From the NCBI GenBank assembly GCA_965202725.1, contig OZ241845.1:794640-858639 (forward strand): 64,000 bases of DNA. The letters run 5' to 3'. A model generated the notes under the pieces. It was not told where the DNA came from. It saw only the letters and a program-made list of their open reading frames with translations, and ran no database searches. The position numbers and the translations under genes are program-made. Source of the stretch: Candidatus Poribacteria bacterium (lineage in GTDB: Bacteria; Poribacteria; WGA-4E; WGA-3G). Shown piece by piece: positions 27,941 through 63,004 of this stretch (within the stretch, counting starts at the first letter, position 1; each line of letters begins with the position of its first letter).

Positions 27941-28125
27941 TAAGGATGGGGGGGCAAGCACACAACAGAGATCTGAAAACTGAGTGCCTTTGTTGATTTC
28001 CCTATTGCTGTTTTCTTGCTCATCGACTATACTGACAAGCGTTTGGACAATTTTAATGTGTAGCATAGGAGACTGTTAACCTACGCCTCCATCTCTATAG
28101 GACTAAATACCCGAAAAGGAGTAAT

Positions 28126-37232: not shown

Positions 37233-37406
37233 CTGGCTGACGCTTGCCTTGCTCAGTACAAGGGTTTTCCTGTACTCATATAAAAGAAACATAGTTGCCG
37301 AAAAAAGTTAGTGGCAAAATCTCACTTTATTTGATATAGTAGAAGAAAATCTTTTAAATTCGATACAAATAAAATAGGTGATCCTCTAAGTCGGGAGGTA
37401 TTCCAA

Positions 37407-38165
37407 ATGCGTAGAATGCTAACAGTCATCGCTTTCTTACTCTATCTGGGTGTAAGCTGTTTCGCTGCGTTCGAAGAGGAGACAGTATTATTATATCTCT
37501 TTGATGAAGAGACAGGCGATGAAGCGACAGACCTGTCCGAATTTGAGAATCATGGTGAAATCATTGATGCTGAATGGACAGAGGATGGGAAAAAAGGGGG
37601 CGCGCTCGTCTTTGATGGTACGAGCACTCTCATTGAAGTTCCACATCACGAGAGCCTCCTTCCCGGCGGCGATGAACTGACAATCGAAGCCTGGTTCAAG
37701 CCGAATTCGTTTCCGGCTGGCCATCCACCGATTGCAAGGAAAGGCTCTGTTGCTGAAAGTGGATGGGGTTTTGATACACCCGGGGGCCAAATTCGCGGAT
37801 TCGTCTACACCGCACCCGGGGCCGCCGCCGTTGCCCAAGGGACAACACAGCTGAAATTGGATACATGGCACCACGTCGCTATGGTGTACGACGGCACAGA
37901 GCTTCGCATCTATCTTGATGGTGAACAAGATGGACAAGCTGATCGAAAAGGAGACATCAACGAGAATCAAGCCTCGGTCTGGATTGGTAAGAAAGCAAAC
38001 GAAAGTGTCTGGCTTGATGGTACGCTTGATGAACTCCGTATTCTCAACATCGCACTTACCGAAGAACAGATTCAGGAAGATATGGAAGGCATCTCGTTTG
38101 CTGTCGAAGTTCCTGGAAAACTCACAACCACGTGGGGACGGATTAAAACGGAGGGCCTCCATTAG
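37407..38165 (+). CDS. secreted LamG-like jelly-roll domain protein with conserved C-terminal GKLTTTWG tail
   Basis: Signal peptide. WFKPN...WHHVAMVYDGTELRIYLDG is a LamG signature. C-terminus is PGKLTTTWGRIKTEGLH. Confidence 0.6.
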   Translation: MRRMLTVIAFLLYLGVSCFAAFEEETVLLYLFDEETGDEATDLSEFENHGEIIDAEWTEDGKKGGALVFDGTSTLIEVPHHESLLPGGDELTIEAWFKPNSFPAGHPPIARKGSVAESGWGFDTPGGQIRGFVYTAPGAAAVAQGTTQLKLDTWHHVAMVYDGTELRIYLDGEQDGQADRKGDINENQASVWIGKKANESVWLDGTLDELRILNIALTEEQIQEDMEGISFAVEVPGKLTTTWGRIKTEGLH

Positions 38166-44658: not shown

Positions 44659-44770
44659 GTTTCTGCTACAGATACGTTTTGATGGGGTTTTGGAGAAAAA
44701 AACGAGGTTATTGTTACGGCAAAACACCCGCAACCTTCTGTGAAAAAACACGGGCATTCTGGTGGCACAA

Positions 44771-44865
44771 TCTAACATGTTATGCTACAAAAGGGGGGCC
44801 GCTGCCCGCGGTTCGCATTGGGCGATTTGTGGTTCTCCCATAGGTTTAGGAAACCTAACCCCTAC
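44771..44865. repeat. A-motif-like sequence (CTAACATGTTATGCTACAAAAGGGGGG) plus REP-like palindrome (TAGGTTTAGG-aaa-CCTAACCCCTAC)
   Basis: Same families as 3582-3695, degenerate. Confidence 0.5.
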
Positions 44866-45016: not shown

Positions 45017-48000
45017 TTAGTCTTGCGTTTTCAGATCGCCCCAGGTCGTCGTGAGCTTGCCCGCAGCGTTGACGTTGCCCCGAAGATGCGTGGTGCGCAA
45101 AGTGGTGCGCGTGCCATCCAAGGAGACGTCTTCTATCTGGTAATAGTAGACGAGGTTGGGTTTCGCAGAGGCATCCGTCCAGCTATAGACGTGCTTTTCA
45201 GCCGTTGTGCCGTGTCCGGGGATAATGCCTTTGCTGTTGACGACTGTGAACGTTCCGGTCTTTGTTTCACTGCGCAGTATATTGAAACCTGCGTTGTTGA
45301 GTTCGGACTCGGTGCTCCAGCGGATGACGACTTCGCCAGTGGCGGTGTCTCGTGCGGGTCGGAAGCTTGCCAGGGAGACGGGCAGGGGTCCCCCGCCGTG
45401 ATGCCCTGGTGTGCCGACATCGTTTCTATCGCCGTAATAGGTTGTTTCGCTATAGCCTTCTGCGGAGCGCCCCGTATTCTGTGCGGAGATCCACCCGCTC
45501 TGCATCATGCCATCAGCAGCCATGTCATCCTCGTATCTACGTATGATAGACGCGCGATGCCCATCGCTGTTGATACCCATCGGCAGGGCCCACTCGGGTG
45601 CATCGTTTGTGCGGCGATTCCCGTCGGTGTTGCCGACTTCGTCAACCACCTTTTTGTCCTTATCTGTGAGTTTCAGATAGAAACCCGTAGCACTCAGGAC
45701 TGTATCGGTGCGCGCTTCCATGTCCAGCTCGCTGCGATGTGATGTCCAGAGGTCTATCGTGCGAGTATCCGGGAAATGGTCTCTGCCTGAGTTAGAACCA
45801 CTGGTGGAAACAATCAATATCGTCTGATTCGGTGCGATGGTGACGGCACCGAGCGTGATCGTGGCGTTCTGACGGGCATCTAAGTTCTCATCCCGTGCGT
45901 TCTGAATTTCAAGTTGCCAGCCGTTCAGGTTCACACCCTGCGTCAGTGAAGAATTGTAAAGTTCTATCCACTGTGGGAGCGAACGTCTACCGGAGCCCGC
46001 ACTAAACATGATCTCAGAGATAGCGACCTCTGCATCAGAGAGATCCGCAACTTTCTCTTTGAGGGCATCGTTAGCATAGCCGGGGGTGCCTCCGTTTTCA
46101 TCGGTGTTGGCAGCCGTGCGGTCATAGCCGATCCCCGTGAAACCCACTTTCGCCCAGTGCTTCTCACCTATACCCGTGTTCTTACCATTCCGTTTATAGA
46201 CGAGACCCGCACGGAAGTCCTCATCGGCACCATCAATCACGTTGCCGTGCCCCGCAGCCCATAACCGAAGGGGCCACACCTCTGTGTCAAAACTACCATC
46301 CTTTTTCTCAGCGAAATAGGTGCCACCATGATCAACAATGTGCGTTGACTTGCCCTCTTTGTCATTCGCACTGCGAAGGATCAGGTTATATTTGCCACTA
46401 TTGGGTAAAACCAGGTTGCTATCTATGTAATACATGGATTGCACACCGCGTTTGACCCGGTCCGCCGCTGCCTTGTTAATCGCAACGCCCGCAGCCAGAT
46501 CATTCCCCGAAGCCGTCGGATCCGAGTTGGAAATCAACAAGATACCCCCCGCAGCGAGTTTCACGTTATCGTTATCCGGGAACGAGACCAACTGCGTCTC
46601 TTTCGCAGCACCATCCACCGACATCACGATATTCAGCTCCCACTTCCTGAGGTTCATCTCACCCGTCGTGGTGTTCCTGAGTTCAACCCAATCGTTAGCA
46701 TCGCTGCTGCTATTGCCTATCTCATTGATCAGCACCTCTTGCGATAGCACCGGCGGGTCTGGTCGAGCTGCCACAGGATACGTACCAGGTGTCCCAAGAC
46801 GATTCCCCGACAGATTCCGGCTCGGTCTCCCAGAAGCAACCCAAGTACCCGAACGCTCCGGATCCCCATCATCTTTCGCATGATCCGCATGCCCGGTATT
46901 ATCTTCATCGAACTGCTTCAGCTTCCGATACATAGACACAAGATCCACCGCATTAGCAGCAGTCGTCGCTTCAGAGCGACCCCCCTTGCTCGGGATAGCC
47001 CAGAAACCCGGATTACCCATATTACTCACAAGATCCACACGACCCGCTACTGACGAAGAAACCCCAGCTGGCTCCGGAACACCCCCTTGCGTAAAGTCAA
47101 GCATCCAACGCGACCCGTCAAAGATAATGGCCGAACCCGTCTTGTTGTAGACTTCAATCCACTGGCTATACTTAGAACGACCCCCTAAAGTAGCATCCTT
47201 GGCAGCCATGATCTCCGTGATCTTCAAATCACCCACCGCCGCACCCGCAGGCCCTTTAACGATAATCGTGCCACCATTCAGGAAGAAATCCTGGAGATCC
47301 ACCATATTCGAAACGGAGATGGTCTTTACGCCACTGGCAATACCCGTGTCGCTTGCCATCGCACCCGGATGCACAAGAACCCCAAAACCTTTGCTTGGAA
47401 TCACATTATCTATATCGGTTACAGTGAGAGTGAACATCAGCTGGGCATTACCCCCGCTGTTGGTCGCAGTGTAGGTATACGTAGTTGCTGCCATTGCAGA
47501 TCCTGTGGGAGTGCCACTCAGCAGCCGAGTCCCTGCAGTAAATGCGAGACCCGCAGGTAAGGCAGGGGTTAGGCTGTACGTGATACCCGTGCCAGTTGCC
47601 ATCGGAAGTTCTATAGCCCGCATTGCCACACCTACAGTCAATATCTGATTGGCAATCACCGTACCAGCAGCAAACGTAGGTGCCACAGGGGCGACAGGGG
47701 CTACAGTGATAGTGAACGTCTTGGTGTCACTCCCAGCACTGTTGGTCGCAGTGTAGGTAAAAGTAGTCGCCGACATCGCAGCAGCGGGAGTCCCACTCAG
47801 CAGCCGAGTCGTCGCATTAAACGCAAGACCATTCCAAGCGGCCGGTGCCAGCGAGTAAGTCACGCCAGTCCCCGTTGCCATCGGCAATGTTTCACTCACT
47901 GCCATACCCACAGTGTAGGTCTTAGCTGGAACAACTGCTAACACAGGAACACTTGTTACGGGATTGACAGTGAGAGTGAACGTCAGCTGGGCATTACCCC

Positions 48001-49870
48001 CGCTGTTTGTGGCAGTGTAGGTATACGTAGTTGCTGCCATTGCAGTTGTGGGGGTGCCACTCAGCATCCGGGTCGCTGTAGTAAACATGAGACCCGCAGG
48101 TAAGGCAGGGGTTAGACCGTAGGTGATACCCGTGCCAGTTGCCATCGGAAGTGTCAGAGCCGGCATTGCTACACCTACAGTCAACATCTGATTGGCAATG
48201 CTCGCATCAGTAGCAAACGTAGGTGCCACAGGGGCGACAGCGGCTACAGTGAGAGTGAAAGTCAGCTGGGCATTACCCCCGCTGTTTGTGGCAGTGTAGG
48301 TATACGTAGTTGCTGTCATTGCTGTTGTAGGGGTGCCACTCAGCAGCCGGGTCGCTGGCGTAAACGTCAGTCCCGCAGGTAAGGCAGGGGTTAGGCTGTA
48401 CGTGATACCCGTGCCAGTTGCCATCGGAAGTTCTATAGCCGGCATTGCTACACCTACAGTCAACATCTGATTGGCAATCACCGTACCAGCAGAAAACGTA
48501 GGTGCCACAGGGACAGGGGCTACAGTGATAGTGAACGTCAGCTGGGCACTGCCTCCGCTGTTGGTCGCAGTGTAGGTATAAGTAGTTGCTGTCGTCATTG
48601 CAGTTGTGGGGGTGCCACTCAGCACCCGGGTCGCTGGCGTAAACGCAAGACCCGCAGGTAAGGCAGGGGTTAGGCTGTAGGTGATACCCGCACCGCTCGC
48701 CACCGGAAGTGTCAGAGCCGGCATTGCCCTCCCTACAGTCAACATCTGATTGGCAATACTCGCATCACCAAACGTAGGCTGCGTCCGCCCCGGCATCGGC
48801 GTCCCAGACACAGCCGCAGAGGGCGTGCCTGCAGGCGTAGTGCCTGCGGCTGCTACACGGATACGCACGGTGATCGGAGTGCCAGCAGCGCCACGGATGA
48901 CCAACGGATAGACCGATACAGCCACCCAATTCACGCCGCCATCGGTGCTATACTCATACCCAGTCGCCGAACCGCCCGTCCAAGACACCGTTATCTTCCC
49001 TGGCCCAGGTTCCACAACAACGCCCGTCGGCATATCGCCGCTAGTGTCGCCACCAGTGTCGCCATTGCCATCGCCGTCATCGCCGCCGTTGCCATCGCCG
49101 TTAGTGTCGCCGTCCATGTCATCGTCAACAGTTGGAATTGGTGTAGGTGTCTGTGTGGGTGTCTGTAACGGCGGGCTCGAACCGTCCGCGTTGTTTATCC
49201 TTAGATAAAAAAAACGCATTACATCACCCTCGTACTCATAACTGCCGCCATCAACCGCGGTATAAGTAAAGTAAAAGTGGCCTGCTTCAGTAGGGGTGCC
49301 AGCAAGGGTCCGAGTCGATGCTGTGAATGTTAAGCCGGCGGGAAGGGCCCGAGTAGGGCTGCCGATGGCATTGTAAAGACTTACCGTCAGTGTATACGTC
49401 GTCGTATCGCCGTCCTCTTGCGTTGCCTCTGGCAAAACAAGACTGTACGCCTGCCCTACCCTCGCTGGACTGGGTGCCGGGATTCTACTCTCACTAAACA
49501 TAGGATCGGAATGTACAGTGAGATTAAACGTCAACGTAATATCGGTCTCACCCGGTGCTGAGGCAGTTACCGTATATGCTGTGGTTGGATAGCCTGCCCG
49601 GAAATGCCCCTGGATTCTAGGGTAATTCTGAACATTTGCAAGCCTCAAAGGAGCAGGTAAGGCGGGCGCTATCGAGAAAGTTATCCCGGCGGCACCCTCA
49701 GCGCGTGACAACGGATGGTCCGTGTTATCACCTTTAGCGAAGTCTAAATCAGGTTGTGTAGTAGGATTCCATGTAAGTGCAGCCTCCACGGCAGTTGGCA
49801 CCAGGAGCAAGGCAAATACTAACAGGACTACTAAACTTGCGAAAGAAAATGTTATTTTATTTGATAACAT
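45017..49870 (-). CDS. giant (1617 aa) secreted adhesin-like protein
   Basis: Signal peptide MLSNKITFSFASLVVLLVFALLLVPTAVEA. Acidic DG-rich tract. Five or more ~95-aa Ig-like 'putative Ig / dystroglycan-type' repeats (YSLTPALPAGLTFTPATRLLSGTPT). Three lamin-tail (LTD) domains (ITEIM..WIEVYN, INEIG..WVELRN, ISEIM..WIELYN). C-terminal beta-domain ends in AGKLTTTWGDLKTQD. The Ig repeats are also near-identical DNA repeats (~47.4-48.8 kb). Confidence 0.7.
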   Translation of the reverse strand: MLSNKITFSFASLVVLLVFALLLVPTAVEAALTWNPTTQPDLDFAKGDNTDHPLSRAEGAAGITFSIAPALPAPLRLANVQNYPRIQGHFRAGYPTTAYTVTASAPGETDITLTFNLTVHSDPMFSESRIPAPSPARVGQAYSLVLPEATQEDGDTTTYTLTVSLYNAIGSPTRALPAGLTFTASTRTLAGTPTEAGHFYFTYTAVDGGSYEYEGDVMRFFYLRINNADGSSPPLQTPTQTPTPIPTVDDDMDGDTNGDGNGGDDGDGNGDTGGDTSGDMPTGVVVEPGPGKITVSWTGGSATGYEYSTDGGVNWVAVSVYPLVIRGAAGTPITVRIRVAAAGTTPAGTPSAAVSGTPMPGRTQPTFGDASIANQMLTVGRAMPALTLPVASGAGITYSLTPALPAGLAFTPATRVLSGTPTTAMTTATTYTYTATNSGGSAQLTFTITVAPVPVAPTFSAGTVIANQMLTVGVAMPAIELPMATGTGITYSLTPALPAGLTFTPATRLLSGTPTTAMTATTYTYTATNSGGNAQLTFTLTVAAVAPVAPTFATDASIANQMLTVGVAMPALTLPMATGTGITYGLTPALPAGLMFTTATRMLSGTPTTAMAATTYTYTATNSGGNAQLTFTLTVNPVTSVPVLAVVPAKTYTVGMAVSETLPMATGTGVTYSLAPAAWNGLAFNATTRLLSGTPAAAMSATTFTYTATNSAGSDTKTFTITVAPVAPVAPTFAAGTVIANQILTVGVAMRAIELPMATGTGITYSLTPALPAGLAFTAGTRLLSGTPTGSAMAATTYTYTATNSGGNAQLMFTLTVTDIDNVIPSKGFGVLVHPGAMASDTGIASGVKTISVSNMVDLQDFFLNGGTIIVKGPAGAAVGDLKITEIMAAKDATLGGRSKYSQWIEVYNKTGSAIIFDGSRWMLDFTQGGVPEPAGVSSSVAGRVDLVSNMGNPGFWAIPSKGGRSEATTAANAVDLVSMYRKLKQFDEDNTGHADHAKDDGDPERSGTWVASGRPSRNLSGNRLGTPGTYPVAARPDPPVLSQEVLINEIGNSSSDANDWVELRNTTTGEMNLRKWELNIVMSVDGAAKETQLVSFPDNDNVKLAAGGILLISNSDPTASGNDLAAGVAINKAAADRVKRGVQSMYYIDSNLVLPNSGKYNLILRSANDKEGKSTHIVDHGGTYFAEKKDGSFDTEVWPLRLWAAGHGNVIDGADEDFRAGLVYKRNGKNTGIGEKHWAKVGFTGIGYDRTAANTDENGGTPGYANDALKEKVADLSDAEVAISEIMFSAGSGRRSLPQWIELYNSSLTQGVNLNGWQLEIQNARDENLDARQNATITLGAVTIAPNQTILIVSTSGSNSGRDHFPDTRTIDLWTSHRSELDMEARTDTVLSATGFYLKLTDKDKKVVDEVGNTDGNRRTNDAPEWALPMGINSDGHRASIIRRYEDDMAADGMMQSGWISAQNTGRSAEGYSETTYYGDRNDVGTPGHHGGGPLPVSLASFRPARDTATGEVVIRWSTESELNNAGFNILRSETKTGTFTVVNSKGIIPGHGTTAEKHVYSWTDASAKPNLVYYYQIEDVSLDGTRTTLRTTHLRGNVNAAGKLTTTWGDLKTQD

Positions 49871-50344
49871 GAATTAGATTCCTCCTAAAAGAAACTATTG
49901 TTTGGACAATGTAAATTCTTCTCTGCTGGCGGGGTTTTGTGGCGGATTCACCTACATGCGATGTGAATTCCCAACCCCGCTTAACCACGCCAGCGGCGAC
50001 TTCAGTGTTGGGTTTCGCTATCTGTATTACCCAGGAAACCGCCTTGAAAAATGGACGATGTGTGCATTCTGAAGATGGTTCTGGGCTTTCCCGCTCAACC
50101 CAACCTATTTTTAGTTTTGCTTTTACTGCGAGGTTCGGAAACCTTGCCAGCGACAACTGCGGACGCAAAGCGAACAGAACGGCAAGATAGAAACACACAG
50201 GTAGTGAAAAGCAAACCCCGAGCAAAAGTCGCTGATACGTTGTATTCGCGTATGTTTGCTTGGAAATAACGGGAGTAGACTTCCTTGGAGAGGGCGCGGA
50301 ATCAGAAAACAGCGGTTGTGTAAAGTTAACTGAGAGTTGAATCT

Positions 50345-50355
50345 GGGGGGGGGGG
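50345..50355. repeat. G11 homopolymer in the non-coding region upstream of the adhesin gene
   Basis: ctGGGGGGGGGGGtaac. Confidence 0.8.
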
Positions 50356-50516
50356 GTAACAACTGATAAGTTAATATCGCTGTTAGCGAAAGACACATAG
50401 AAGCGAAACCGCCACAAGGTATACGGGCAGACTCGCATCGCTCCACTTCTCTCTTCTTTTACTCCTACATTAACAAGCCAGTTAGCCATCGCTGTTCGCT
50501 GTCCTCAACGCGTTTC

Positions 50517-50566
50517 CCCTTGCTTGTGGGGGGGGGGCGGGGAGGTATTCCCCTAGGTAATGTCAA
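50517..50566. repeat. B-motif copy with expanded G-run (CCCCTTGCTTGTGGGGGGGGGGCGGGGAGG...GGTAATGTCAA)
   Basis: Matches 7888-7925 including the GTAATGTCAA tail. The G-run is G10 here versus G5/G7 elsewhere. Confidence 0.65.
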
Positions 50567-50660
50567 TTATACACCATCTGAACCATAAATGTCAAATTAT
50601 TTCTTCACGTTCACAGACATAAAATACCTTAAACACACCTAACGCGTCAAGTCTTTTTTC

Positions 50661-50814
50661 CATGCTATTCTAAAATAGGTAGGCTGTGCCGTTGTAGCAT
50701 GGTTTCGTGTTAGGCTGTGCCTTACCCTTACCCCCCTACCCCCCGCAAGCAGGCGGGATGCTATTCTTGTAGCATGGTTTCGTGTTAGGCTGTGCCTTAA
50801 GTTGTAGCAAGGTT
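50661..50814. repeat. A-motif cluster: degenerate A, A, B (reverse), A, partial A
   Basis: TTGTAGCATGGTTTCGTGTTAGGCTGTGCC at 50692-50721 and 50767-50796. Between them lies the reverse complement of the B motif. The cluster is immediately 3' of mod1. Confidence 0.75.
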
Positions 50815-50834
50815 CTTGACTGCATAGTTCGGCA

Positions 50835-52511
50835 TCACTCTGTAACAACCGTCTCCTCACCGAGCATATCAATAATCTTCACAGCAACCCGAGCATCAGG
50901 ACGCGGCAGCGATACCGTGTATTCTCCCTCAACAAAGTCAGCCTTTTTCTGTGGAACATCGCTTTCAACGATGTCGAAACGCTCGCCCGTATAATCGGTA
51001 TCGATTAGCACACAATCAACTTGTGCACGGAAGTCCTCAATGTGTTCGCCGAAGAGGGTGCGGTCTATGTCCAAACGCCCCAAGATAGTTGGACTCATAT
51101 AATCTTCAATAGTGATCGTAACGCTCTCTCCGTTTCTTTCAAAGCTAACATCTGCTTCGGCAGCCGCATAAGTAGTCACACCATCACGTTGAATATCGCG
51201 CACGATGAATTTGTTTATCCCGCGTCGCTGGTTTTCTTTAACAAGTTCTTCCTGAATTCCGATCTCGCTCCCATTGCATAGCAGCGTGATGTTGCGTGCC
51301 TCATCTGGGCGATTTTGGAGTTCGTCTTTAATAAGTTGAACATCCAATCGATTGAACGGTCTTGTAAGGTCAATAATTTTGACGAGTGTCCCGTCCAGTG
51401 TGCCGTCAAAAAACGCTTCTCGCCTGTCCGTTTGCACGCCATATTTTTTGATAACAATATTCCTTCGTTCTAAATGTGTGCTGGCATCGTAGTTATTGAC
51501 ACGATAGTGGGCAATGCCGCGCCGCATCTCTGGTAACTTCTGTAGTCTTTTGAGTGTCGTCTGGATGGCCCCTTTGTTGATATCCGCAGCAATCCAGCGC
51601 CTACCGAGTTCCTCCGCTATGACTGCAGTGGTTCCGCTACCAATAAAACAATCAAGAACGATAGAATCCTTGTTGCTCGAGGCTTTAAGAATAGGTTCTA
51701 TTAAATTTTTAGGTTTTTGAGTAGGAAAGTCGGAACGTTCCCGATCCATAGTGTTAAGCGAAGGTTGAATAATCACATCATCAGGAGTTTTACCTGTTGG
51801 CATATCCTTTCCTGCTTGTCCTCCCCTGTTGTATCGCCACTCGGTCATTCCGCTTTCAAAAGGCACTAGAATTTCATCTCGATTGAAAATGTATTTGTCC
51901 GGCGATTTGGTATACCAAAAAATAGTCTCATGTGCATGGGCTAATCTCTTTTTTCCACGAGAGGCATTTTTGTAGTACCAAATAATTTCATTCTGGAAGA
52001 GGTCTTTGTCAAATATTTCGTCCATGAGTACTTTCAGATAGTGACTTTTTTCATGGTTGCAATGCAGGTAAATTGAACCTTTATCTGATAACAATTCATA
52101 CATCAAAATGAGTCGTTCATACATAAACTGCAAATAGTTGTCATTTGCCCAAATATCAGTGTATTGTGTTTGCTCGACAAAAGAGGGACCTTCGCCTGCT
52201 AATTCTTTCTCTTCACCGCGCAGTTTTACCTTTCGCACATAGTCTGCTCCACTGTCAAACGGTGGATCGATATAAATGAGGTCTATTTTACCACGAAACC
52301 CTTGCACAAGCAATGTGGAGAGAATCTCTTTGTTGTCTCCGTGAAAAAGGAGATTGGGCCCCTCCTTGAATCTGTCGTAAGTCGGTTCCTTTTCTGGGTT
52401 TTCTATGTTGTAGGTTTCGACTAATTGTGCAGGATAGTTGCTGATTGTGTCAATCGGGCGTTTGCCGACCCAATGCAACATCGGTCTGCCTTTAACGGGT
52501 TTGATTTTCAT
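50835..52511 (-). CDS. Type III restriction-modification methyltransferase Mod, paralogue 1 (beta-class N6A/N4C MTase) with ~230-aa conserved C-terminal extension
   Basis: Motif IV IDLIYIDPPF near the N-terminus, a variable middle target-recognition region, motif X PTQKP, motif I VLDCFIGSGTTAV, then a long C-terminal domain shared by all copies. Start placed at MKIKPVKG (ATG 52511). The listed ORF starts 15 nt upstream. Confidence 0.6.
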   Translation of the reverse strand: MKIKPVKGRPMLHWVGKRPIDTISNYPAQLVETYNIENPEKEPTYDRFKEGPNLLFHGDNKEILSTLLVQGFRGKIDLIYIDPPFDSGADYVRKVKLRGEEKELAGEGPSFVEQTQYTDIWANDNYLQFMYERLILMYELLSDKGSIYLHCNHEKSHYLKVLMDEIFDKDLFQNEIIWYYKNASRGKKRLAHAHETIFWYTKSPDKYIFNRDEILVPFESGMTEWRYNRGGQAGKDMPTGKTPDDVIIQPSLNTMDRERSDFPTQKPKNLIEPILKASSNKDSIVLDCFIGSGTTAVIAEELGRRWIAADINKGAIQTTLKRLQKLPEMRRGIAHYRVNNYDASTHLERRNIVIKKYGVQTDRREAFFDGTLDGTLVKIIDLTRPFNRLDVQLIKDELQNRPDEARNITLLCNGSEIGIQEELVKENQRRGINKFIVRDIQRDGVTTYAAAEADVSFERNGESVTITIEDYMSPTILGRLDIDRTLFGEHIEDFRAQVDCVLIDTDYTGERFDIVESDVPQKKADFVEGEYTVSLPRPDARVAVKIIDMLGEETVVTE

Positions 52512-52956
52512 TGTGTTCCGTCCCATGCCTCAAAATGTGTATAAATTTTTCTGGGGGCACGATCTGTATTTGCTCATAACTACCTAAATCCAATAGGTCC
52601 CGGTCTCGACTTACGATATAATCGGCTGATACTGCCACAGCGCAGGAGATAATCATGTCGTCTTTAGGGTCGCGTTCTATGACACGAATTTCTGGCAATT
52701 GTGCAACTATAATGCTAATATCTTTCAGGTAATCGATAAAAATTTCTGCTTTTTCTGAGGGATATGTATAACGATTCCGTATGTGTGGTTTCTCTAAAAG
52801 TACATGGCGAATTTCCTGTAAAATTTCTGCCGACGTGTAAAGATTGACATTTTCCTGACACTGAGACACCAAGGCTGCTGTCAATCCCTGGGTAAGAAAA
52901 GCACTTACGGCGACAACGCTATCAAGGACAACGCGTAGTTTTCTTCTGTTTGTCAT
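52492..52956 (-). CDS. PIN-domain toxin (VapC-like)
   Basis: RVVLDSVVAVSA (N-terminal Asp) ... CAVAVSADYIVSRDRD acidic residues typical of PIN. Start placed at MTNRRK (ATG 52956). Its 3' end overlaps the mod1 start by ~20 nt. Confidence 0.5.
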   Translation of the reverse strand: MTNRRKLRVVLDSVVAVSAFLTQGLTAALVSQCQENVNLYTSAEILQEIRHVLLEKPHIRNRYTYPSEKAEIFIDYLKDISIIVAQLPEIRVIERDPKDDMIISCAVAVSADYIVSRDRDLLDLGSYEQIQIVPPEKFIHILRHGTEHNENQTR

Positions 52957-53224
52957 ATTCTTCCTGTCGACACTCAGCAACAGCGCGCTCAACATCTTGA
53001 TAGACTTCTTCTTCACTGATCCCTCTATTTTGTTCATGGACGCTTTTCATTAATTGCAAAAGTTTCGCCCAATTTTCAGGGGTCGTTGATTTCTTAGGCA
53101 TGATCACTACACAATCACCCTCAATCCGTGCATCCACGATATCGCCCTTCTTGAGCCCTAAACTTTCTCGGATCTGTTTCGGAATAGTTATCTGTCCATG
53201 TTCGAGAATCTTGGCAATTGCCAC
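52922..53224 (-). CDS. AbrB/MazE/SpoVT-family antitoxin
   Basis: MAIAKILEHGQITIPKQIRESLGLKKGDIVDARIEGDCVVIMPK is a swapped-hairpin AbrB signature. GTG start. Overlaps the PIN gene by ~35 nt. Confidence 0.5.
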   Translation of the reverse strand: MAIAKILEHGQITIPKQIRESLGLKKGDIVDARIEGDCVVIMPKKSTTPENWAKLLQLMKSVHEQNRGISEEEVYQDVERAVAECRQEEYDKQKKTTRCP

Positions 53225-53282
53225 ATTTTTTCTCCTTTTTGTGTAGTTGTCCTAATATGCATTGTGCCTTTCGCAACGTTAA

Positions 53283-53408
53283 GTTGTAGCATGGTTTCCT
53301 GTTAGGCTGTGTCTCTTCCGTAGCATGGTTTCCTTTAGGCTGTGCCTCCTTCATAGCATAGCCTCCGCGCTTGCGGGGGCGTAGCATAGTTTCCGATTAG
53401 GCTGTGCC
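53283..53408. repeat. A-motif cluster (3 copies) with B-like fragment CCTCCGCGCTTGCGGGGGCG
   Basis: GTTGTAGCATGGTTTCCTGTTAGGCTGTG, GTAGCATGGTTTCCTTTAGGCTGTGCC, GTAGCATAGTTTCCGATTAGGCTGTGCC. Lies between the toxin-antitoxin pair and mod2. Confidence 0.75.
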
Positions 53409-53526
53409 GTTCCGTTCCCCGTAATAAACAAGCGGACATCCGCGCTTAATTCCGCACGTACCTTTCAGTGTGTCTTCTCGTAACAGAGAAACCACCTCAT
53501 CAGGTTCTTGACTGAAGAGTTCGGCA

Positions 53527-55266
53527 TCACTCGGTAACAACCGTCTCCTCACCAAGCATATCAATAATCTTCACAGCAACGCCAGCATCAGAACGCGGCA
53601 GTGATACCGTGTATTTTCCCTCAACAAAGTCAGTCTTTTTCTGTGGAACATCGCTTTCAACGATATTGAAATGCTCACCCGTATAATCGGTATCGATTAG
53701 CACACAATCAACCTGGGCTCGGAAGTCCTCAATGTGTTCGCCGAAGAGGGTGCGGTCAATATCCATGCGTGCCAAGATAGTTGGACTCATATAATCTGCT
53801 ATAGTGATCGTAACGCTCTCTCCGTTTCTTTCAAAGCTAACATCTGCTTCGGCAGCCGCATAAGTAGTCACACCATCACGTTGAATATCGCGCACGATGA
53901 ATTTGTTTATCCCGCGTCGCTGGTTTTCTTTAATAAGTTCTTCCTGAATTTCGCCCTCACTTCCATTGCATAACACCGTGATGTTGCGTGCCTCATCTGG
54001 GCGATTTTGGAGTTCGTCCTTAATGACTTGAATATCCAGTCGGGTGAACGGTCTCGTCAAGTCAGCGATTTTGACGAGGGTTCCGTCTAAGTGTCCATCA
54101 AAGAAAGCAGCTTTCCGGTCAGTTTCCACACCGTATTTAGAAACGATAATCTCTTTAAGTTTGTGCTCAGTTTGGAAGTCGTAGTTATTGACGCGGTAGT
54201 GGGCAATCCCACGTGGTTCGTCAATACTGGACTGTATCCTTTTCATTGTAGTCTGTATCGCGCCTCTGTTGAGGTCTGCAGCGATCCAACGTCTACCAAG
54301 TTTTTCCGCTACAGCAGCAGTGGTGCCACTCCCCACAAAGCAATCTAAAACGATATCTCCCTCATTAGAAGATGCTGTGATAATACGTTCTAATAGAGCT
54401 TCAGGTTTTTGGGTTGGATATCCTATACGTTCATCATCGTCACCTTGTATAGTAAGCTCCTTTTCTATCCATAGATTTCCAATAGCGACTCCAGGATTAG
54501 TATCAAGGTAGACTCTCTTAACAGTGCCTTGCAGATATTTGCGACCCCGTGGTATTGCATAACGTCGACCATTTTCGTCAGTGTGTCTATATTCAGATTT
54601 GATAGTTTGTTCTGATAATGGACGGAATATAGCATTGAAAGTATATTTATCGGTGAGCGAATAAAACAGTAAAGTGTCGTTCTCAGTTGTAAATTTTAGT
54701 TTCGCTGTATTTTTATGTCCCCCATATTTTCTCCACACGATCTCATTTCTAAAGTTAATTTCTCCAAAAATTTCGTCCAATACTAACCTCAAATAACTGT
54801 TCATCCGCCAGTCACAATGCACAAAGATAGCCCCATTATCTGATAACAATTCCCGCATCAGAGTCAACCGTTCGTACATAAACTGAAGATAAGTATCATT
54901 TGCCCAAATATCACTGTATTGTATCTGTTCAGCAATAGTGTGTCCTTCTGCCTCCAGTTTCTCCCTTCTACCGCGCAATGCCACTTCCCGTACATAATCC
55001 GCACCGCTTGCAAAGGGTGGATCGATGTAGATAAGGTCTATCTTCCCGCGGAATCCCTGCACGAGAAGTGTAGAGAGGATTTCCTTGTTATCGCCGTGAA
55101 AAAGGAGGTTAGGACCGTCCTTAAATCTGTCGTAAGTTGGTTCTTTTTCTGGGTTTTCGGTGTTGTAGGTTTCGACTAGTTGTGCAGGATAGTTGCTGAT
55201 TGTGTCAATCGGGCGTTTGCCGACCCAGTGGAGCATGGGTCTGCCTTTAACGGGGGTGATTTTCAT
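53527..55266 (-). CDS. Type III restriction-modification methyltransferase Mod, paralogue 2 (different target-recognition region)
   Basis: About 200 N-terminal and ~230 C-terminal residues are near-identical to mod1. The central ~150 aa are unrelated. DPPF and FVGSGTTA motifs are intact. Confidence 0.6.
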   Translation of the reverse strand: MKITPVKGRPMLHWVGKRPIDTISNYPAQLVETYNTENPEKEPTYDRFKDGPNLLFHGDNKEILSTLLVQGFRGKIDLIYIDPPFASGADYVREVALRGRREKLEAEGHTIAEQIQYSDIWANDTYLQFMYERLTLMRELLSDNGAIFVHCDWRMNSYLRLVLDEIFGEINFRNEIVWRKYGGHKNTAKLKFTTENDTLLFYSLTDKYTFNAIFRPLSEQTIKSEYRHTDENGRRYAIPRGRKYLQGTVKRVYLDTNPGVAIGNLWIEKELTIQGDDDERIGYPTQKPEALLERIITASSNEGDIVLDCFVGSGTTAAVAEKLGRRWIAADLNRGAIQTTMKRIQSSIDEPRGIAHYRVNNYDFQTEHKLKEIIVSKYGVETDRKAAFFDGHLDGTLVKIADLTRPFTRLDIQVIKDELQNRPDEARNITVLCNGSEGEIQEELIKENQRRGINKFIVRDIQRDGVTTYAAAEADVSFERNGESVTITIADYMSPTILARMDIDRTLFGEHIEDFRAQVDCVLIDTDYTGEHFNIVESDVPQKKTDFVEGKYTVSLPRSDAGVAVKIIDMLGEETVVTE

Positions 55267-55425
55267 TGTATGTTCTTCCTATGTTATAGAATCTTGATCG
55301 ACAATACTATATAACGTAAGTTTGATAAATACTTGTACGAAATCAATGTGTGCGTTTTCGGTATCGCGGGGGATCTCAAGGTTACCTTCAAGATAGGTAC
55401 TATGATACTCCTCAATCCTACTTAA

Positions 55426-56019
55426 TCAACAAGCTTTCTTGAAAAACAAAGCAACCAGAATGAAGAATAACAATGTTGGAACTGCAACCACAAACATACG
55501 AGACCAGTCATTCCAAATTTGGTTGAAATGCATGAATAATTCTCCGAAGTTAGAAACTGGAATGAGTCTAGGGGCTGATTTCTTGAATAATTGTTTTTCA
55601 GTCATTTTTCGCCTTTCACCACCAAAATTGACTGTAACCTCTGCATCGCTGGGACAGAAAGTGTTTTTAGGGTATTTAGAAAGATGGTGCAAAATACATT
55701 CTGCTTTTTTAAGGTAAAAGTTTCTTCGCCATGCGTCATTTGCCATTGCTACAGCAACTCCAATTTGCCACATAACGTAAATAATGTGTATACCTAGCGC
55801 AAATAAGGCTAGTCCAATACTTTGCCATCGTTCAATAGACAGTGATGTTGCTTTTATAATTTGGTAAAAAGCTAAAATGAGTAGCGTCATATACGAGATA
55901 AAAATCCTAAATTCAACGGTTCTCCTGTCATCATGCCGCTTTGCTCCAAATTCAGCAATGTCCAGCATACCCTGCAAGTTCTCTCTATCCTTGTCGAAGT
56001 TATCTTTATTGTTCATCAC
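55426..56019 (-). CDS. hypothetical 4-TM membrane protein, markedly AT-rich, embedded in the restriction-modification locus
   Basis: 197 aa, hydrophobic helices (FRIFISYMTLLILAFYQII, LALFALGIHIIYVMWQIGVAV, VVAVPTLLFFILVALFF). No recognisable family. Confidence 0.4.
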   Translation of the reverse strand: MMNNKDNFDKDRENLQGMLDIAEFGAKRHDDRRTVEFRIFISYMTLLILAFYQIIKATSLSIERWQSIGLALFALGIHIIYVMWQIGVAVAMANDAWRRNFYLKKAECILHHLSKYPKNTFCPSDAEVTVNFGGERRKMTEKQLFKKSAPRLIPVSNFGELFMHFNQIWNDWSRMFVVAVPTLLFFILVALFFKKAC

Positions 56020-56088
56020 TTACCTCTCAGTGTGTCTTCTCGTAACAGAGAAACCACCTCATCAGGTTCTTGACTGAAGAGTTCGGCA

Positions 56089-57790
56089 TCACTCGGTAAC
56101 AACCGTCTCCTCACCAAGCATATCAATAATCTTCACAGCAACGCCAGCATCAGAACGCGGCAGTGATACCGTGTATTTTCCCTCAACAAAGTCAGTCTTT
56201 TTCTGTGGAACATCGCTTTCAACGATATTGAAATGCTCACCCGTATAATCGGTATCGATTAGCACACAATCAACCTGGGCTCGGAAGTCCTCAATGTGTT
56301 CGCCGAAGAGGGTGCGGTCTATGTCCAAACGCCCTAAGATAGTGGGACTCATATAATCTGCTATAGTGATCGTAACGCTCTCTCCGTTTCTTTCAAAGCT
56401 AACATCTGCTTCAGCAGCCGCATAAGTGGTCACACCATCACGTTGAATATCGCGCACGATGAATTTGTTTATCCCGCGTCGCTAGTTTTCTTTAACAAGT
56501 TCTTCCTGAATTCCGATCTCGCTCCCATTGCATAACACCGTGATGTTGCGTGCCTCATCTGGGCGATTTTGGAGTTCGTCTTTAATAAGTTGAACATCCA
56601 ATCGGGTGAACGGTCTTGTAAGGTCAATGATTTTGACGAGTGTCCCGTCCAGTGTGCCGTCAAAAAACGCCTCGCGCCTATTCGTTTGCACGCCATATTT
56701 TTTGATAACAATATCCCTTCGTTCTAAGTGCGTACTGGCATCGTAGTTATTGACACGATAGTGGGCAATGCCGCGCCGCATCTCTGGTAACTTCTGTAGT
56801 CTTTTGAGTGTCGTCTGGATGGCCCCTTTGTTGATATCCGCAGCAATCCAGCGCCTACCGAGTTCCTCCGCTATGACTGCAGTGGTTCCGCTACCAATAA
56901 AACAATCAAGGACAATAGAATTTTTATCGCTTGATGCTTTGATGATACGTTCTACAAGCTTTTCAGGTTTCTGGGTAGGAAATTGTTGCCGCTCTTTCGC
57001 ACTTCTACTGATAATGCCGATTTCAAATAGGTCTGATGGCAATTGCCCCTTTGGGTGTGCGTACCACTTTTTACCTGAAGAATCTAATGTGTAATAACCC
57101 TCTCCGTCCTGTTTGTAACCTTTTAGTTGTTCTGCTTTATAAGGTTCCCGCATTTCATCTAAGTGAAAAATCCAATCTTCGGCACTTTTAGCGTACCAAA
57201 AGATCGTATCATGTTTCTGAGAGAACTTCTTTCTTACTGTACTTGCCCAATTATACTTCCAGACGATTTCGTTGACGAAATTACCCTCTCCGAATACTTC
57301 GTCTAATAGTAAACGTAGATGATGATTTTTGTGTGAATCGCAATGAAGATAGAGACTTCCCCTATCACTTGAGTTCGCGCATCAAAATGAGCCGTTCAAA
57401 CATGAATTGAAGGTAGTTATCATTTGCCCAGATGTCGGTATATTGCGTCTGCTCAATAAGGGAATGGCCTTCCGCCTCTAAGTTTTTCTGTCCTCCACGT
57501 AATGCTACCTTTCGCACATAGTCTGCTCCACTGTCAAACGGTGGATCGATATAAATGAGGTCTATTTTACCACGAAACCCTTGCACAAGCAATGTGGAGA
57601 GAATCTCTTTGTTGTCTCCGTGAAAAAGGAGATTGGGCCCCTCCTTGAATCTGTCGTAAGTCGGTTCCTTTTCTGGGTTTTCTATGTTGTAGGTTTCGAC
57701 TAATTGTGCAGGATAGTTGCTGATTGTGTCAATCGGGCGTTTGCCGACCCAATGCAACATCGGTCTGCCTTTAACTGGCTTGATTTTCAT
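56089..57790 (-). pseudogene. Type III Mod paralogue 3, decayed
   Basis: N-terminal fragment 57365-57790, target-recognition region + motif I fragment 56482-57153, C-terminal fragment 56089-57457. Broken by a frameshift near 57360 and a CAG to TAG nonsense at 56483-56485 (gtcgcTAGtttt versus gtcgcTGGtttt in the intact copies). Carries a third distinct target-recognition region. Confidence 0.55.
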
Positions 57791-57942
57791 TGTGTGTTCT
57801 TCCTATGCTATTTATGATAGATCTTAGCATGAATTGGACAAGCTGTGAATCAACGTTAGCATGCGCGTGTCGCATTCTGCGGGTGTGGTTAGAAACCGTA
57901 CCCACCGTGCTTGGGCGAAACTCTATGCTACAGGTGATACTT

Positions 57943-57969
57943 GCACAGGCTAACGGTTTCCTATGCTAC
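57943..57969. repeat. A-motif copy (reverse: CACAGGCTAACGGTTTCCTATGCTACA) plus partial copy, between res and the mod array
   Basis: Overlaps the res stop codon region. Confidence 0.6.
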
Positions 57970-60620
57970 AGGGCCTCCCCTTTAATATCGGTCCCATAAA
58001 TCCATTCGCGGATAGTTCGCGTTTCATCGTCTAAATTCTCTTGGAGAAAAGCGTCGCGTGTATAAATGACCTTATATTCAAAGTGAACATCTGGCTGTAA
58101 ATTTTTCAGACGTTCCACTGCCTTCTCTTTTGCTACGACGGTAGGGTCCCCGCGTTCACTTTCAGACTTAATCTCAACAATGTAGAATTCTCCAGTGTTC
58201 TTGACGATAACAAAATCAGGAAAATAGCGGTGATAATTGTTATCAGCCCCCTTGTATTCAAAGTGAAAATCGGTTTTCTTGGTATTCGTTAAACTTCCAG
58301 TAAACAGCAACATTTTGATATCTGCAACGGATTGATTCAACGTTGCCAACACCTTCTTAAAGAAGTTCTGTTCGGGGCTACTATCAAAATTGTAAGGCGT
58401 ATAGTGATAACTCACATCGTGGTTGTCATCTAAGTCACATTCACTGAGCAACAGGTCAATTTTGCTCTTGCGCACACGTACCTTGTGAACATAACAGTTC
58501 TCAACCGCATCCTTTTCAAAAAGAGGATTGCCATCGTCATCGTGGGTACGGATAAGGGCAAGGTGTTTCGTAATCGTTTCCTCAATCACTTCGTAATTTT
58601 GCTGCTGTTCTTCCACCTGTTTACATAGCGAATAGTAGTGTTTGGCTGGAACCTGCCCCTCTGGATAGAGGCTTTTGAGACTTTTAAGTGTTTCCATCGC
58701 AGAGAGGTGATAGTTTGTAGCAAGTCGTCTCGCCAGCGTGTAACAATCGGTTGTTTGATTAGCAATTTCAACCTCGTCCTGCGTTCCTAACGTTGTTAGC
58801 GGTGAAGCACCGCGATGCGTAAAATCAGGGGTTAGAATGCTGCGAAAAGCAGGCGGAGTCTTCTCAACGTCTGCTGTAGGGAGATGGAGCTGAATCTTTT
58901 TAGGTGCTGTTTCCAATGGCACAACCCGGCGCACCCATTGCATAATTTTTAATTTTGGCAAATCAGGCTTGCGAATGCGCAGTGCGATATCTTGTGTTTC
59001 TGCGTCTTGTGCGCGGAGCTCACCGAGCGTAGTCCCAAAGTTTGCCTGTAGCTCTCTATCCAAAATCGCACTGTTTTTCCTATCCAAAAATATTTTTGCA
59101 GTGTGGGTGTTGCCTTTCACTTGACGGAGACATCGGGTTGAGGCTTGCAAAATAAAGTTGCTACTGGTTGTTTGTTCCTTAATAAGGGCGCAAGCGAATA
59201 GGCTTGGACAATTCCATCCTTCTGTCCCTTTACCAATAAGTAGAATGACACGTTTCTGACTGTCAGGATTGTTGAGGTGATTGAATTCATCAATTTCCTG
59301 CGGACTTGATTTTTGGGTATTGACAAGTATCTGAGTGGTACTCTCTCTCCTTTGGGTAAGTGCGTTTTGAATATGCTGATGGGAGGTATCCAAATGTTCT
59401 TGTGTCTTGAAGTAAAAGGCGATTTTCGCTTTCGCACCATTCGGTAAGGATACGTTGCCGTAGTTGTCAAAAAAATCGTTGATAACGTTACGCATCACGT
59501 CTGCATCAGGAATCGTTCCGATAGGGTATTGAACAATGCCGTTGTGAAGACTTTTGAGAATGTTGTCCTTAATTCCTTCCCCGAGACTGTACCATGCCAC
59601 AACCTCTCTGAGCATCTGCCGTTTGGCGTAAGGCGTGCCAGTGGTATTGATTACAGCTACGAGAGACGTTTTCTCATGTATGTAGTTAACCGTCTCGCGC
59701 ACCCGTTTAAGCTCTGCGTCTATCTTGTTGCCGTAGGTATGATGTGCCTCATCTGAGAAGACCCCTAACCGGGGCAGGCTTGTAATTTTTTGGAGGCGGA
59801 GATTGGCTTCTAATTCCGCTTGTTCCTTCTTCTCTGCGAATTCTAATTCTGTCTGATTACGCCGTTTTCTCACATGTGCTCGAAGCGCGATTTTCTCAGT
59901 GTTTGTGACAACGACGTTGTAACTACTATTGGTTTGAACTTGAATGTCTTTCGCACCTGCTTGTGGATAGGTAATCTTGAGGTTGGCCAAAAAATCGCGG
60001 TGTAGACTGGCAGGTAGAACCTGATCAAATGGTATATCGCTAATCTCGCGTAGACTTTCGATAATGGTTGTACCGGGGGCGAAGACGAGGGCGTTCTTCA
60101 TGAAGTCGCCCTCAGGATAACGGAGCGCCATCGCGAATTCGGTTGCGATAATGGTGCCGATAAGCACAGTCTTGCCGGTGCCCATTGCCAGGGCGAAGAT
60201 ATAACTCGGATACGGGAGTGTGACAGCCTCGTAGACAGGGTCAATTCGCTTCTGTTTAACGAATTCCGGGGTGTTTTCTACCAAGTTAAGGATCGCGTCA
60301 ACATCTCTAATCAAGATCAGTTCTTGGGGAGAGATGGGGATACCGAAGGCTTCGCAGAAATCACGTATATCGTCAGTGTCGTAGTAATGCCTATAGAGTT
60401 TGACAATATGCGGGGTTTTTAGCACTAATCGCAGGTACCAATAGAGTTCCAGTGATTGGAATTGCGGGTGGCGGAGGTATTTGAGGGAGATTTCCTCCGG
60501 TGGCTCGCCTTCACATTGATAGCGCAGAATCTCACCGATAAGGGGATACTCTGGACAGGGGTATCCTGTATTGCGCCAGTTGAGTGTGTCGTCGCGCAGT
60601 TTTTCAAAAAGGTGTTGCAT
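57966..60620 (-). CDS. Type III restriction enzyme Res subunit (SF2 helicase-like ATPase + C-terminal PD-ExK nuclease)
   Basis: Walker A ALAMGTGKTVLIG. DEAH box VFSDEAHHTYG. C-terminal D-x-EIK (DFVIVKNTGEFYIVEIKSE). 884 aa. Confidence 0.65.
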   Translation of the reverse strand: MQHLFEKLRDDTLNWRNTGYPCPEYPLIGEILRYQCEGEPPEEISLKYLRHPQFQSLELYWYLRLVLKTPHIVKLYRHYYDTDDIRDFCEAFGIPISPQELILIRDVDAILNLVENTPEFVKQKRIDPVYEAVTLPYPSYIFALAMGTGKTVLIGTIIATEFAMALRYPEGDFMKNALVFAPGTTIIESLREISDIPFDQVLPASLHRDFLANLKITYPQAGAKDIQVQTNSSYNVVVTNTEKIALRAHVRKRRNQTELEFAEKKEQAELEANLRLQKITSLPRLGVFSDEAHHTYGNKIDAELKRVRETVNYIHEKTSLVAVINTTGTPYAKRQMLREVVAWYSLGEGIKDNILKSLHNGIVQYPIGTIPDADVMRNVINDFFDNYGNVSLPNGAKAKIAFYFKTQEHLDTSHQHIQNALTQRRESTTQILVNTQKSSPQEIDEFNHLNNPDSQKRVILLIGKGTEGWNCPSLFACALIKEQTTSSNFILQASTRCLRQVKGNTHTAKIFLDRKNSAILDRELQANFGTTLGELRAQDAETQDIALRIRKPDLPKLKIMQWVRRVVPLETAPKKIQLHLPTADVEKTPPAFRSILTPDFTHRGASPLTTLGTQDEVEIANQTTDCYTLARRLATNYHLSAMETLKSLKSLYPEGQVPAKHYYSLCKQVEEQQQNYEVIEETITKHLALIRTHDDDGNPLFEKDAVENCYVHKVRVRKSKIDLLLSECDLDDNHDVSYHYTPYNFDSSPEQNFFKKVLATLNQSVADIKMLLFTGSLTNTKKTDFHFEYKGADNNYHRYFPDFVIVKNTGEFYIVEIKSESERGDPTVVAKEKAVERLKNLQPDVHFEYKVIYTRDAFLQENLDDETRTIREWIYGTDIKGEAL

Positions 60621-62932: not shown

Positions 62933-62977
62933 CGGGGTTGTTAACGTGAGTTTGAAAAAAGCGCTTTTGTGCGTATC

Positions 62978-63004
62978 GTAGGGGTTAGGAGACCTAACCC
63001 CTAC
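62978..63004. repeat. REP-like perfect palindrome GTAGGGGTTAGG-aga-CCTAACCCCTAC
   Basis: 12-bp stem, preceded by the AAAAGCGCTTTT palindrome. Possible terminator for the binding-protein gene. Confidence 0.7.

Follow-up and report, generated by a model that had tools for sequence, protein, structure and literature searches.

The 64,000-nucleotide stretch of DNA analyzed here (the window; Candidatus Poribacteria bacterium, GenBank assembly GCA_965202725.1, contig OZ241845.1, positions 794,640 to 858,639) carries genes for planctomycete-type PSCyt/PSD proteins, a sulfatase, and restriction-modification systems, and between its genes lie short repeats of two types, which we call A and B. An earlier reading of the letters of this DNA (the original prediction) had described them as a dispersed intergenic repeat family, and this proved to be correct. 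We found 10 A-type and 5 B-type units at 8 intergenic sites, where chance predicts approximately none, and all 15 units are situated between long open reading frames (ORFs). Their coordinates are collected in Table 1.

With the 30-nt motif A as the query and up to 3 mismatches allowed, copies were found at 3629-3658 and 7926-7955 on the minus strand and at 50692-50721, 50767-50796, and 53284-53313 on the plus strand, with 0 expected from 100 shuffles. A repeat finder recovered the same copies and also degenerate ones. The motif had been given as containing TTTCCTG, but the copies at 50692 and 50767 actually read TTTCGTG. The B core CTTGCTTGCGGGGG, with up to 2 mismatches, matched 5 times in the window compared with 0.35 matches expected. 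We also built a covariance model of the A family from the aligned units and searched the window with it. This returned 10 A units and the next best match had an E value of only approximately 0.07. Because all ten of these units had belonged to the seed of the model, the search shows merely the absence of further strong copies. No A unit was found in the 9.5 kb upstream of the window in the source genome.

Table 1. Units of the A and B types in the window, with scores from the A-family covariance model where available.
Type	Position	Strand	Score	Features
A, long TTT-bulged variant	3627-3660	-	46.1 bits, E 3.7e-13	2 mismatches; upstream of OTCase gene
B	3659-3696	+		aTAGGAT head, GCCCCC/GGGGGC hairpin, G5-C-G3-A-G3 tail
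B	7881-7919	+		Full GTAGCAT head, G5-C-G7 tail
A, long variant	7924-7957	-	42 bits	3 mismatches
A family, short variant GTAGCATAACCTGTTAGGTTGTGCTAC	20805-20835	+	46.4 bits	Perfect 12-bp hairpin; between convergent genes
A-like, marginal and degenerate	28056-28089	+	13 bits, E 0.068	Upstream of sulfatase gene
A family, short variant	44762-44792	-	38.1 bits	Between convergent genes
B-like hairpin	50509-50546	+		Without TAGCAT head; tail G10-C-G4
A, first of A-B-A block	50690-50723	+	47.9 bits	1 mismatch
B	50732-50763	-		Opposite in orientation to the A units on either side; head aTAGCAT at 50763, CCCGC/GCGGG hairpin, tail G6-TA-G6
A, second of A-B-A block	50765-50798	+	48.6 bits	37 nt from mod1 stop codon
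A, first of head-to-tail A-A-B-A array	53282-53315	+	50.5 bits	33-nt period
A, 1-nt loop deletion	53316-53348	+	43 bits
B-like	53353-53378	+		aTAGCAT head, CCTCCGC-GCTT-GCGGGGG hairpin, without G tail; 2 mismatches
A, degenerate	53377-53410	+	36.2 bits
A-family variant AGG[AAA]CC...AGCCT	57940-57973	-	33.7 bits	Middle stem pair flipped

The unit originally placed at 44771-44800 exists, but its true coordinates are 44762-44792 on the minus strand. This unit and the one at 20805 are members of the family, as had been claimed, but they represent a shorter version of A that is palindromic throughout. A 61-nt sequence is repeated three times in near-perfect tandem (20625-20805), and this array stops exactly at the start of the unit at 20805-20835. 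At the unit at 57940-57973, the TAG within the GTAG head serves as the stop codon of the res gene (57966-57968).

B consists of a hairpin with a G+C stem and a loop of the TGCTTGC type, followed by a tail rich in G. Its head is GTAGCAT in one copy, ATAGCAT in two, ATAGGAT in one, and missing in one. Four of the five B copies adjoin an A unit and the orientation of the two alternates. The units are head-to-head at 3627-3696 (A at 3627-3660 with B at 3659-3696) and tail-to-tail at 7877-7957 (B at 7881-7919 with A at 7924-7957), and both arrangements occur at 50690-50798. In this last block the order A-B-A had been reported correctly, but its middle B unit is inverted relative to both A units. 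The array at 53282-53410 (A-A-B-A) is wholly direct. The composite at 7877-7957 has the ends TTTGTAGCAT...ATGCTACAAA, and the A/B doublet has a 10-nt terminal inverted repeat in common. The region 7874-7960 did not fold more strongly than its shuffled versions (z -0.9 as DNA and -1.2 as RNA). The B-like hairpin at 50509-50546 has a sigma-70 promoter (50595-50566, minus strand) on one side and the start of a 210-aa gene on the other.

Structure, distribution, and location of the A family

An A unit is approximately 30 nt long and has the form ttGTA[GCAT]-arm-GTT-arm-[GTGC], in which a 5' GTAG head is followed by a hairpin. The outer stem of the hairpin (GCAT/GTGC) includes a conserved T.G pair; inside it are a 5-bp stem that covaries and a loop of GTT. 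The motif A of the original prediction is the AGCCT/AGGCT type that carries a TTT bulge (the long variant). Shorter relatives occur around the pattern matches, all of which start with (t)tGTAGCAT and finish with GTGC. The inner arms differ from unit to unit yet are complementary, as in AGCCT/AGGCT, AACCT/AGGTT, AAACT/AGTTT, AGGCT/AGCCT, and AATCT/AGATT. The short variant at 20805-20835 is a strong hairpin (z -5.4 as DNA and -5.6 as RNA). Linkers between units are CT-rich (GTGC-CTCTnnn-GTAGCAT) and arrays contain up to 5 units head-to-tail.

We aligned 61 units with MAFFT. This alignment over-represents the long variant because the long variant served as the search pattern, so the counts that follow are not independent events. 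G-T-A-G-C-A is invariant across the 61 units. The 9-pair structure has 96.2% of its pair cells occupied by standard pairs, compared with 19-44% when the partners were slid by 1-3 columns. Compensatory changes occur at two pairs (GC/AU, in 12 sequences, and CG/GC/AU/UA) and the T.G pair is kept in 55 of 58 distinct sequences.

The exact pattern GTAGCATRGTTTCNNNTTAGGCT was found at 24 loci in only 15 assemblies among 185,579 species genomes, and 13 of these 15 assemblies are titled Candidatus Poribacteria. The flanks of the matches are mutually unrelated and conservation reaches past the pattern itself (tt upstream and GTGC downstream). Among the loci that we fetched (designated by L numbers), the closest DNA matches of the window are from Ca. 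Poribacteria metagenome-assembled genomes (MAGs) and from two MAGs labelled 'uncultured bacterium', with 70-82% identity. The source genome is thus Poribacteria-like and was not itself part of the set of representative genomes searched. The A family is confined almost wholly to Candidatus Poribacteria and close relatives. The units reflect neither chance nor local duplication, and A is present in 15 other assemblies with unrelated flanks.

We determined the location of 63 family units from the window and the fetched loci. Sixty of these are outside ORFs of at least 100 aa. By region, 39 are in co-directional regions (3 of them within a called ORF), 11 are between convergent genes, 11 are between divergent genes, and 2 are beside a locus end. 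The 36 intergenic units in co-directional regions have the same orientation as the genes in 21 cases and are opposed in 15. The presence of both orientations, and of units in all types of region, argues against cis-regulatory RNAs and cassette-boundary sites, and fits repetitive extragenic palindromes (REPs). A sign of turnover of the units can be seen upstream of the OTCase gene, where the window and L024/L008 are orthologous for approximately 95 nt. Beyond this, L024/L008 have one A unit on the plus strand and the window has a unit of a third palindrome family (C, described below), an A unit on the minus strand, and a B unit.

The original prediction associated the repeats with cassette boundaries. 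The window has a type III restriction-modification locus on the minus strand (50835-60620) with three tandem mod genes and then res (57966-60620). mod1 (50835-52526) and mod2 (53527-55266) are 68% identical, with near-identical ends and a divergent center (approximately aa 180-280) that is probably the target-recognition domain. The third gene, mod3 (56089-57790), is split among three ORFs, and a MazE-like antitoxin (52922-53224) and a PIN toxin (52492-53037) are encoded between mod1 and mod2. This locus may be an array that switches specificity or one that is decaying. If the units were recombination sites bounding gene cassettes (attC-like or of the shufflon/Xer type), the presence of three mod genes in tandem would be explained, and units do occur at the 3' ends of mod1 and mod2 and between res and mod3, within a region of 2.6-kb direct repeats. 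However, the 3' end of mod3 has no unit, and the same units stand beside unrelated housekeeping genes both here and in other genomes. The units are approximately 30 nt with a GTAG head, not imperfect palindromes of 60-120 nt as in the attC type. No integrase, invertase, or other recombinase was found when approximately 33 ORFs of the window were scanned against Pfam. It is thus extremely unlikely that the units are cassette-bounding sites.

A RAYT-like gene flanked by A units and the nature of the repeats

A search for a cognate DNA enzyme, which had been suggested as a check, was successful in that related genomes contain a unit-flanked gene for an HUH tyrosine transposase of the REP-associated tyrosine transposase (RAYT) type. 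In five related genomes, A-family units flank this one gene, mostly in inverted orientation. Two of the loci (L003 and L014) were fetched solely because they contain motif A and three homologues were then looked up directly (L026-L034). In L003, clusters of units in opposite orientation bracket ORF 1283-2032, which encodes a 249-aa protein. This protein contains the motifs SFYRRNLPH, NHVHVV (HUH), GYTAYKAN, and FWQPESYDH, and NHVHVV, GYTAxKxN, and FWQxESYDH are invariant among the homologues. Its top NCBIfam match is REP_Tyr_transpos (REP-associated tyrosine transposase) at 1.7e-15, and IS200 is matched at 0.057. The best sequence match in the PDB is E. coli TnpArep (4ER8). A profile of 18 homologues had 4ER8 as its sole significant match in the PDB (E 1.7e-5), with the N-terminal strand, the HUH motif, and the C-terminal segment aligned in order. 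There are 1410 homologues, several of which are labelled Ca. Poribacteria and one of which was named RayT by the Joint Genome Institute (JGI).

The heads of the units face the gene from both sides in L003, in L030 (with the same arrangement across L026-L031), and in L034. In these, minus-oriented units are just upstream of the gene (17 nt before its start in L026-L031 and L034) and plus-oriented units overlap or follow the stop codon. The gene in L014, whose product is 84% identical, is cut by the locus end and has a unit downstream only, 18 nt beyond the 3' end of the ORF. In L032, direct copies of a composite block stand on either side of the gene, each copy with units in both orientations, and L033 also has composite blocks with units in both orientations. 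The RAYT gene follows the same PSCyt2/PSD1 gene in several genomes, which fits a vertically inherited, low-copy RAYT.

The 3' end of the RAYT gene overlaps a unit in L003, L030, and L032. At 1160-1300 of L003, the 5' end of the gene is duplicated (approximately 120 nt) with a unit between the copies, so that the called ORF has a repeated N-terminus. The L026-L031 contigs are from different samples and encode an identical RAYT protein, and at approximately 2600-2800 they have 3 or 4 copies of a 43-nt sequence that contains a unit, which is a further sign of turnover. Two of these contigs have N-gaps inside the array; these arrays are length-variable, or hard to assemble, or both.

Based on the invariant GTAG head, the covarying stem, the restriction to one lineage, and the units that flank a RAYT-like gene, we consider it highly probable that A belongs to the GTAG-tagged REPs, with a RAYT as the most likely agent of its spread, and that B is a second hairpin type that forms mosaics with A resembling bacterial interspersed mosaic elements (BIMEs). 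REPs are recognized by a GT(A/G)G head with a palindrome, by clustering, and by rayt genes flanked by inverted REPs (PMC2817692). The original prediction took the repeat to be a novel kind of element, but extragenic palindromes with a GTAG head and a RAYT belong to the known REP/BIME class (PMC2817692, PMC3733652).

The mechanism we propose is transferred from TnpArep of E. coli, Stenotrophomonas, and Marinomonas (PMC8266576, PMC3479197). The hairpin formed by the GTAG strand in single-stranded DNA would be bound by the RAYT, an HUH tyrosine transposase, which would recognize the GTAG head as well as the stem, bulge, and loop. The enzyme would then cut at a nearby CT beside the hairpin and rejoin the strands, and this could both seed new intergenic copies and enlarge local arrays. 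TnpArep of E. coli needs a bulge or mismatch in the stem, acts on the REP strand alone, and cleaves at CT beside the hairpin; its recognition constrains the sequence of the head, loop, and bulge (PMC8266576). The invariant head of the A units, the strand-asymmetric T.G pair and TTT bulge, and the CT-rich linkers agree with such a mechanism. The RAYT may mobilize the A units and perhaps also B, and the source genome presumably has a RAYT of its own outside the window.

Several observations weigh against this interpretation. No RAYT gene was found in the 64-kb window by tblastn. The RAYT-like protein of the related genomes scores below the curated cut-offs (57 versus 80 bits for NCBIfam and 21.5 versus 23 for Pfam Y1_Tnp). 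Foldseek placed 4er8_A first, followed by IS608, ISDra2, and Sulfolobus TnpA, but the AlphaFold model of this protein is poor (pLDDT 55), so we count this result merely as weak support. The long variant, which is the most conserved, barely folds as DNA (-0.4 kcal/mol, z +0.5) and folds modestly as RNA (-6.2 kcal/mol, z -1.1, GTAG strand only), and the alignment is biased toward this variant. Neighboring A-type units are head-to-tail rather than inverted by 34:1 (35 pairs), with a period of 31-43 nt. The strict long-variant pattern has just 1-7 matches per representative genome, a genome-wide count that covers that variant alone. B was absent from approximately 190 kb of other poribacterial loci and was found in the window alone, so that the case for calling it a REP comes from its head and hairpin and from its pairing with A.

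The poor folding of the long variant suggests a constraint on sequence rather than on structure. This would be expected if the units were double-stranded operators or iterons for a sequence-specific host protein, with the hairpin potential being incidental, and so would the identity of the long variant over approximately 27 nt across many species and the regular period of the tandem arrays (31-43 nt). However, compensatory changes maintain the pairing of the stem in other variants, and some units lie at 3' ends or between convergent genes, places in which regulation would not be expected. Recognition by TnpArep also constrains sequence (PMC8266576), and the link to a RAYT-like gene offers a simpler explanation. 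We therefore regard operators as a very unlikely explanation.

Another idea, in line with the small RNA or regulatory site that had been proposed, is that the units are structured RNA elements (5'-untranslated region regulators, protective 3' hairpins, or small RNAs) and that the DNA repeat is secondary. The conserved T.G and G.T pairs favor a hairpin of the GTAG strand as RNA (-6.2 kcal/mol versus -0.8 kcal/mol for its complement), the stem covaries, and several copies precede a start codon by 27-100 nt and have the orientation of its gene. REPs in other bacteria have also been reported as RNA elements (PMC3733652). By contrast, there is no orientation rule relative to genes (the 21 versus 15 co-directional units above), units also occur between convergent and divergent genes, and the units form head-to-tail arrays of up to 5. 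The units facing the transposase gene would be left unexplained, and RAYT substrates should show the strand asymmetry just as well, since their complementary strand (iREP) has no activity (PMC8266576). Searches with Rfam 15 gave no match at the gathering score in the whole window, and nothing relevant at E up to 10 in 50450-50850 or at E up to 1 in the five-unit array of L019. A literature search on RNA motifs in Poribacteria likewise gave nothing. RNA function is thus improbable as the primary explanation, and is compatible with REPs as a secondary, co-opted role.

Other candidates were also considered and rejected. Readings of TTGTAGCAT as sigma-54, extracytoplasmic function (ECF), Bacteroidetes-type, or extended -10 promoters were rejected by eye, given the tandem arrays and the sites between convergent genes. 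None of the units coincided with an intrinsic terminator in a scan for these, and the units are not followed by a T-run on either strand. For a CRISPR remnant, there was just a 13.6-bit match of B to CRISPR-DR10 (E 4.3), with no spacers and no cas genes.

For B, we lean slightly toward the interpretation that it is a second REP type and the BIME partner of A. A metagenome scan for B (TAGNATNCCSNNTGCTTGCGGGGG) gave two matches, which is approximately chance level, in short contigs of 58% G+C with no family context. The run lengths of the G-rich tails (G5-C-G3, G5-C-G7, and G10-C-G4) are as originally quoted, but slippage does not follow from them because the differences are between paralogous copies at different loci. 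A consensus sigma-70 promoter, TTGACA-18-TATAAT (12/12; 50566-50595, minus strand), is upstream of the 210-aa gene (49857-50489), and the G10 tract (50527-50536) is in the predicted 5' leader of this gene, between the promoter and the ribosome-binding site. The G-runs of B could in principle be contingency tracts in which slipped-strand mispairing switches neighboring genes. The lengths of the runs vary between copies, the gene with this leader adjoins the type III restriction-modification locus, and an independent sample (L035), which is 99.87% identical over the same region, has G12 where the window has G10. However, differences between paralogues are uninformative about slippage at a single locus. 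The contig with G12, which provides the lone allelic difference, has 2x coverage, and elsewhere in the 2289 nt compared it differs solely by another homopolymer indel (C4/C3), which disrupts the mod frame. This points to sequencing error, which is at least as likely as real variation. Also, the G10 tract is downstream of the -10 box and outside both the promoter spacer and the ORF, and G-rich tails likewise follow REP hairpins that flank the RAYT gene in another poribacterial lineage (L032). We therefore think it doubtful that these are contingency tracts.

A more specific version of the REP interpretation can be offered only tentatively. A and its RAYT could be an old, vertically inherited poribacterial REP-RAYT system outside RAYT groups 2 and 3, which amplifies head-to-tail with a 31-43-nt period and not as inverted doublets, and which in the source lineage has paired with the G-tailed B. 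The G-tracts of B could then add G-quadruplex or length-variable behavior in leaders. As a comparison, RAYT groups 2 and 3, from the Gammaproteobacteria, are the only ones tied to abundant REPs so far (PMC5581495).

Other features of the window and comparison with known systems

The window also contains a palindrome family, C, with the form GTAGGGGTTrGG-nnn-CCyAACCC(CTAC). Copies are at 3581-3606, 7625-7650, 44840-44865, and 62975-63004, with a degenerate copy at 37020-37036, and the hairpins are strong (z -4.3 to -8.6). The same architecture with a different stem, GTAGGGGCGAGGtcyCCTCGCCC, occurs in other Poribacteria (L014 and L021). C is probably a second REP class. A repeat of approximately 125 nt at 7575-7700 and 36960-37087 (approximately 80% identical, no Rfam match) includes the C hairpin, in degenerate form in the second copy.

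Other repeats include a 101-nt direct repeat (37099-37199 and 37371-37471) and a 1.2-kb tandem duplication at 23000-25362, whose copies are 96-99% identical and hold 4.8 and 7.8 repeats of AACAAGGCATAG inside ORFs. Coordinate arithmetic puts the end of an ENA contig, one matching the start of the window, at approximately 23,284, inside this duplication. A type ISP restriction-modification enzyme of 1032 aa is encoded at 4248-7346 on the minus strand, and downstream of it is a 33-nt tandem repeat (2.1 copies, 3889-3956) in or beside a 131-aa ORF. At 45017-49870 on the minus strand is the gene for a 1617-aa protein with six He_PIG Ig-like repeats (279-nt period in the DNA) and two lamin-tail domains, which is probably a surface or adhesion protein.

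If A is a REP family, then a conspicuous repeat of a little-studied candidate phylum is explained without new biology, as REP elements with a RAYT partner. What is new is a REP family not previously described in Poribacteria; the class of element is already known. The covariance model and the protein family allow those who annotate MAGs to mask or label these repeats, and the arrays plausibly add to problems of assembly, as in the two contigs with N-gaps inside the array. For research on REPINs (REP doublets forming hairpins) and RAYTs, this is a clear case outside the Proteobacteria, with a conserved RAYT neighborhood, head-to-tail arrays, and strain-variable array length, and it could be used to test the generality of the RAYT mechanism.

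In comparison with REPtrons, the joint name for GTAG-tagged REPs and their RAYT/TnpArep transposases (Nunvar, 2010, PMC2817692; Di Nocera, 2013, PMC3733652; Corneloup, 2021, PMC8266576), the poribacterial units have the same 5' GTAG head, an imperfect palindrome of 20-40 nt, and an unpaired loop. They are likewise extragenic and clustered, with several stem classes per genome (A, B, and C), a conserved mismatch or bulge in the stem, and CT dinucleotides immediately 3' of the hairpin. Units flank a low-copy HUH/Tyr gene, in most of the loci examined with their heads facing it, and some overlap its stop codon. There are also differences. The host is a member of Ca. Poribacteria, and our search of the literature found no paper linking Poribacteria with RAYT or REP. 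With approximately 250 aa, the RAYT-like protein is larger than its E. coli counterpart (165 aa), and it contains a long helical insert. The stem is richer in A+T than usual and the commonest variant folds weakly. REPs typically exceed 100 copies per genome; the count here is 10 A units in the 64-kb window.

Compared with the BIMEs of E. coli (Y/Z), arrays made only of A are head-to-tail (34:1) where classical BIMEs alternate, B is known from the window alone, and the other BIME motifs (L, S, l, r, etc.) are unrecognizable here. Like the units of BIMEs, A and B have the same head and alternate in compact mosaics (3627-3696, 7877-7957, and 50690-50798). REPINs (Bertels and Rainey, 2011; PMC3116915) are inverted doublets that fold into one long hairpin. 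The replicating unit here does not resemble such a doublet, and only 1 of 35 neighboring A pairs is inverted. What A has in common with REPINs is that both are short, non-autonomous elements associated with a vertically inherited and essentially single-copy RAYT.

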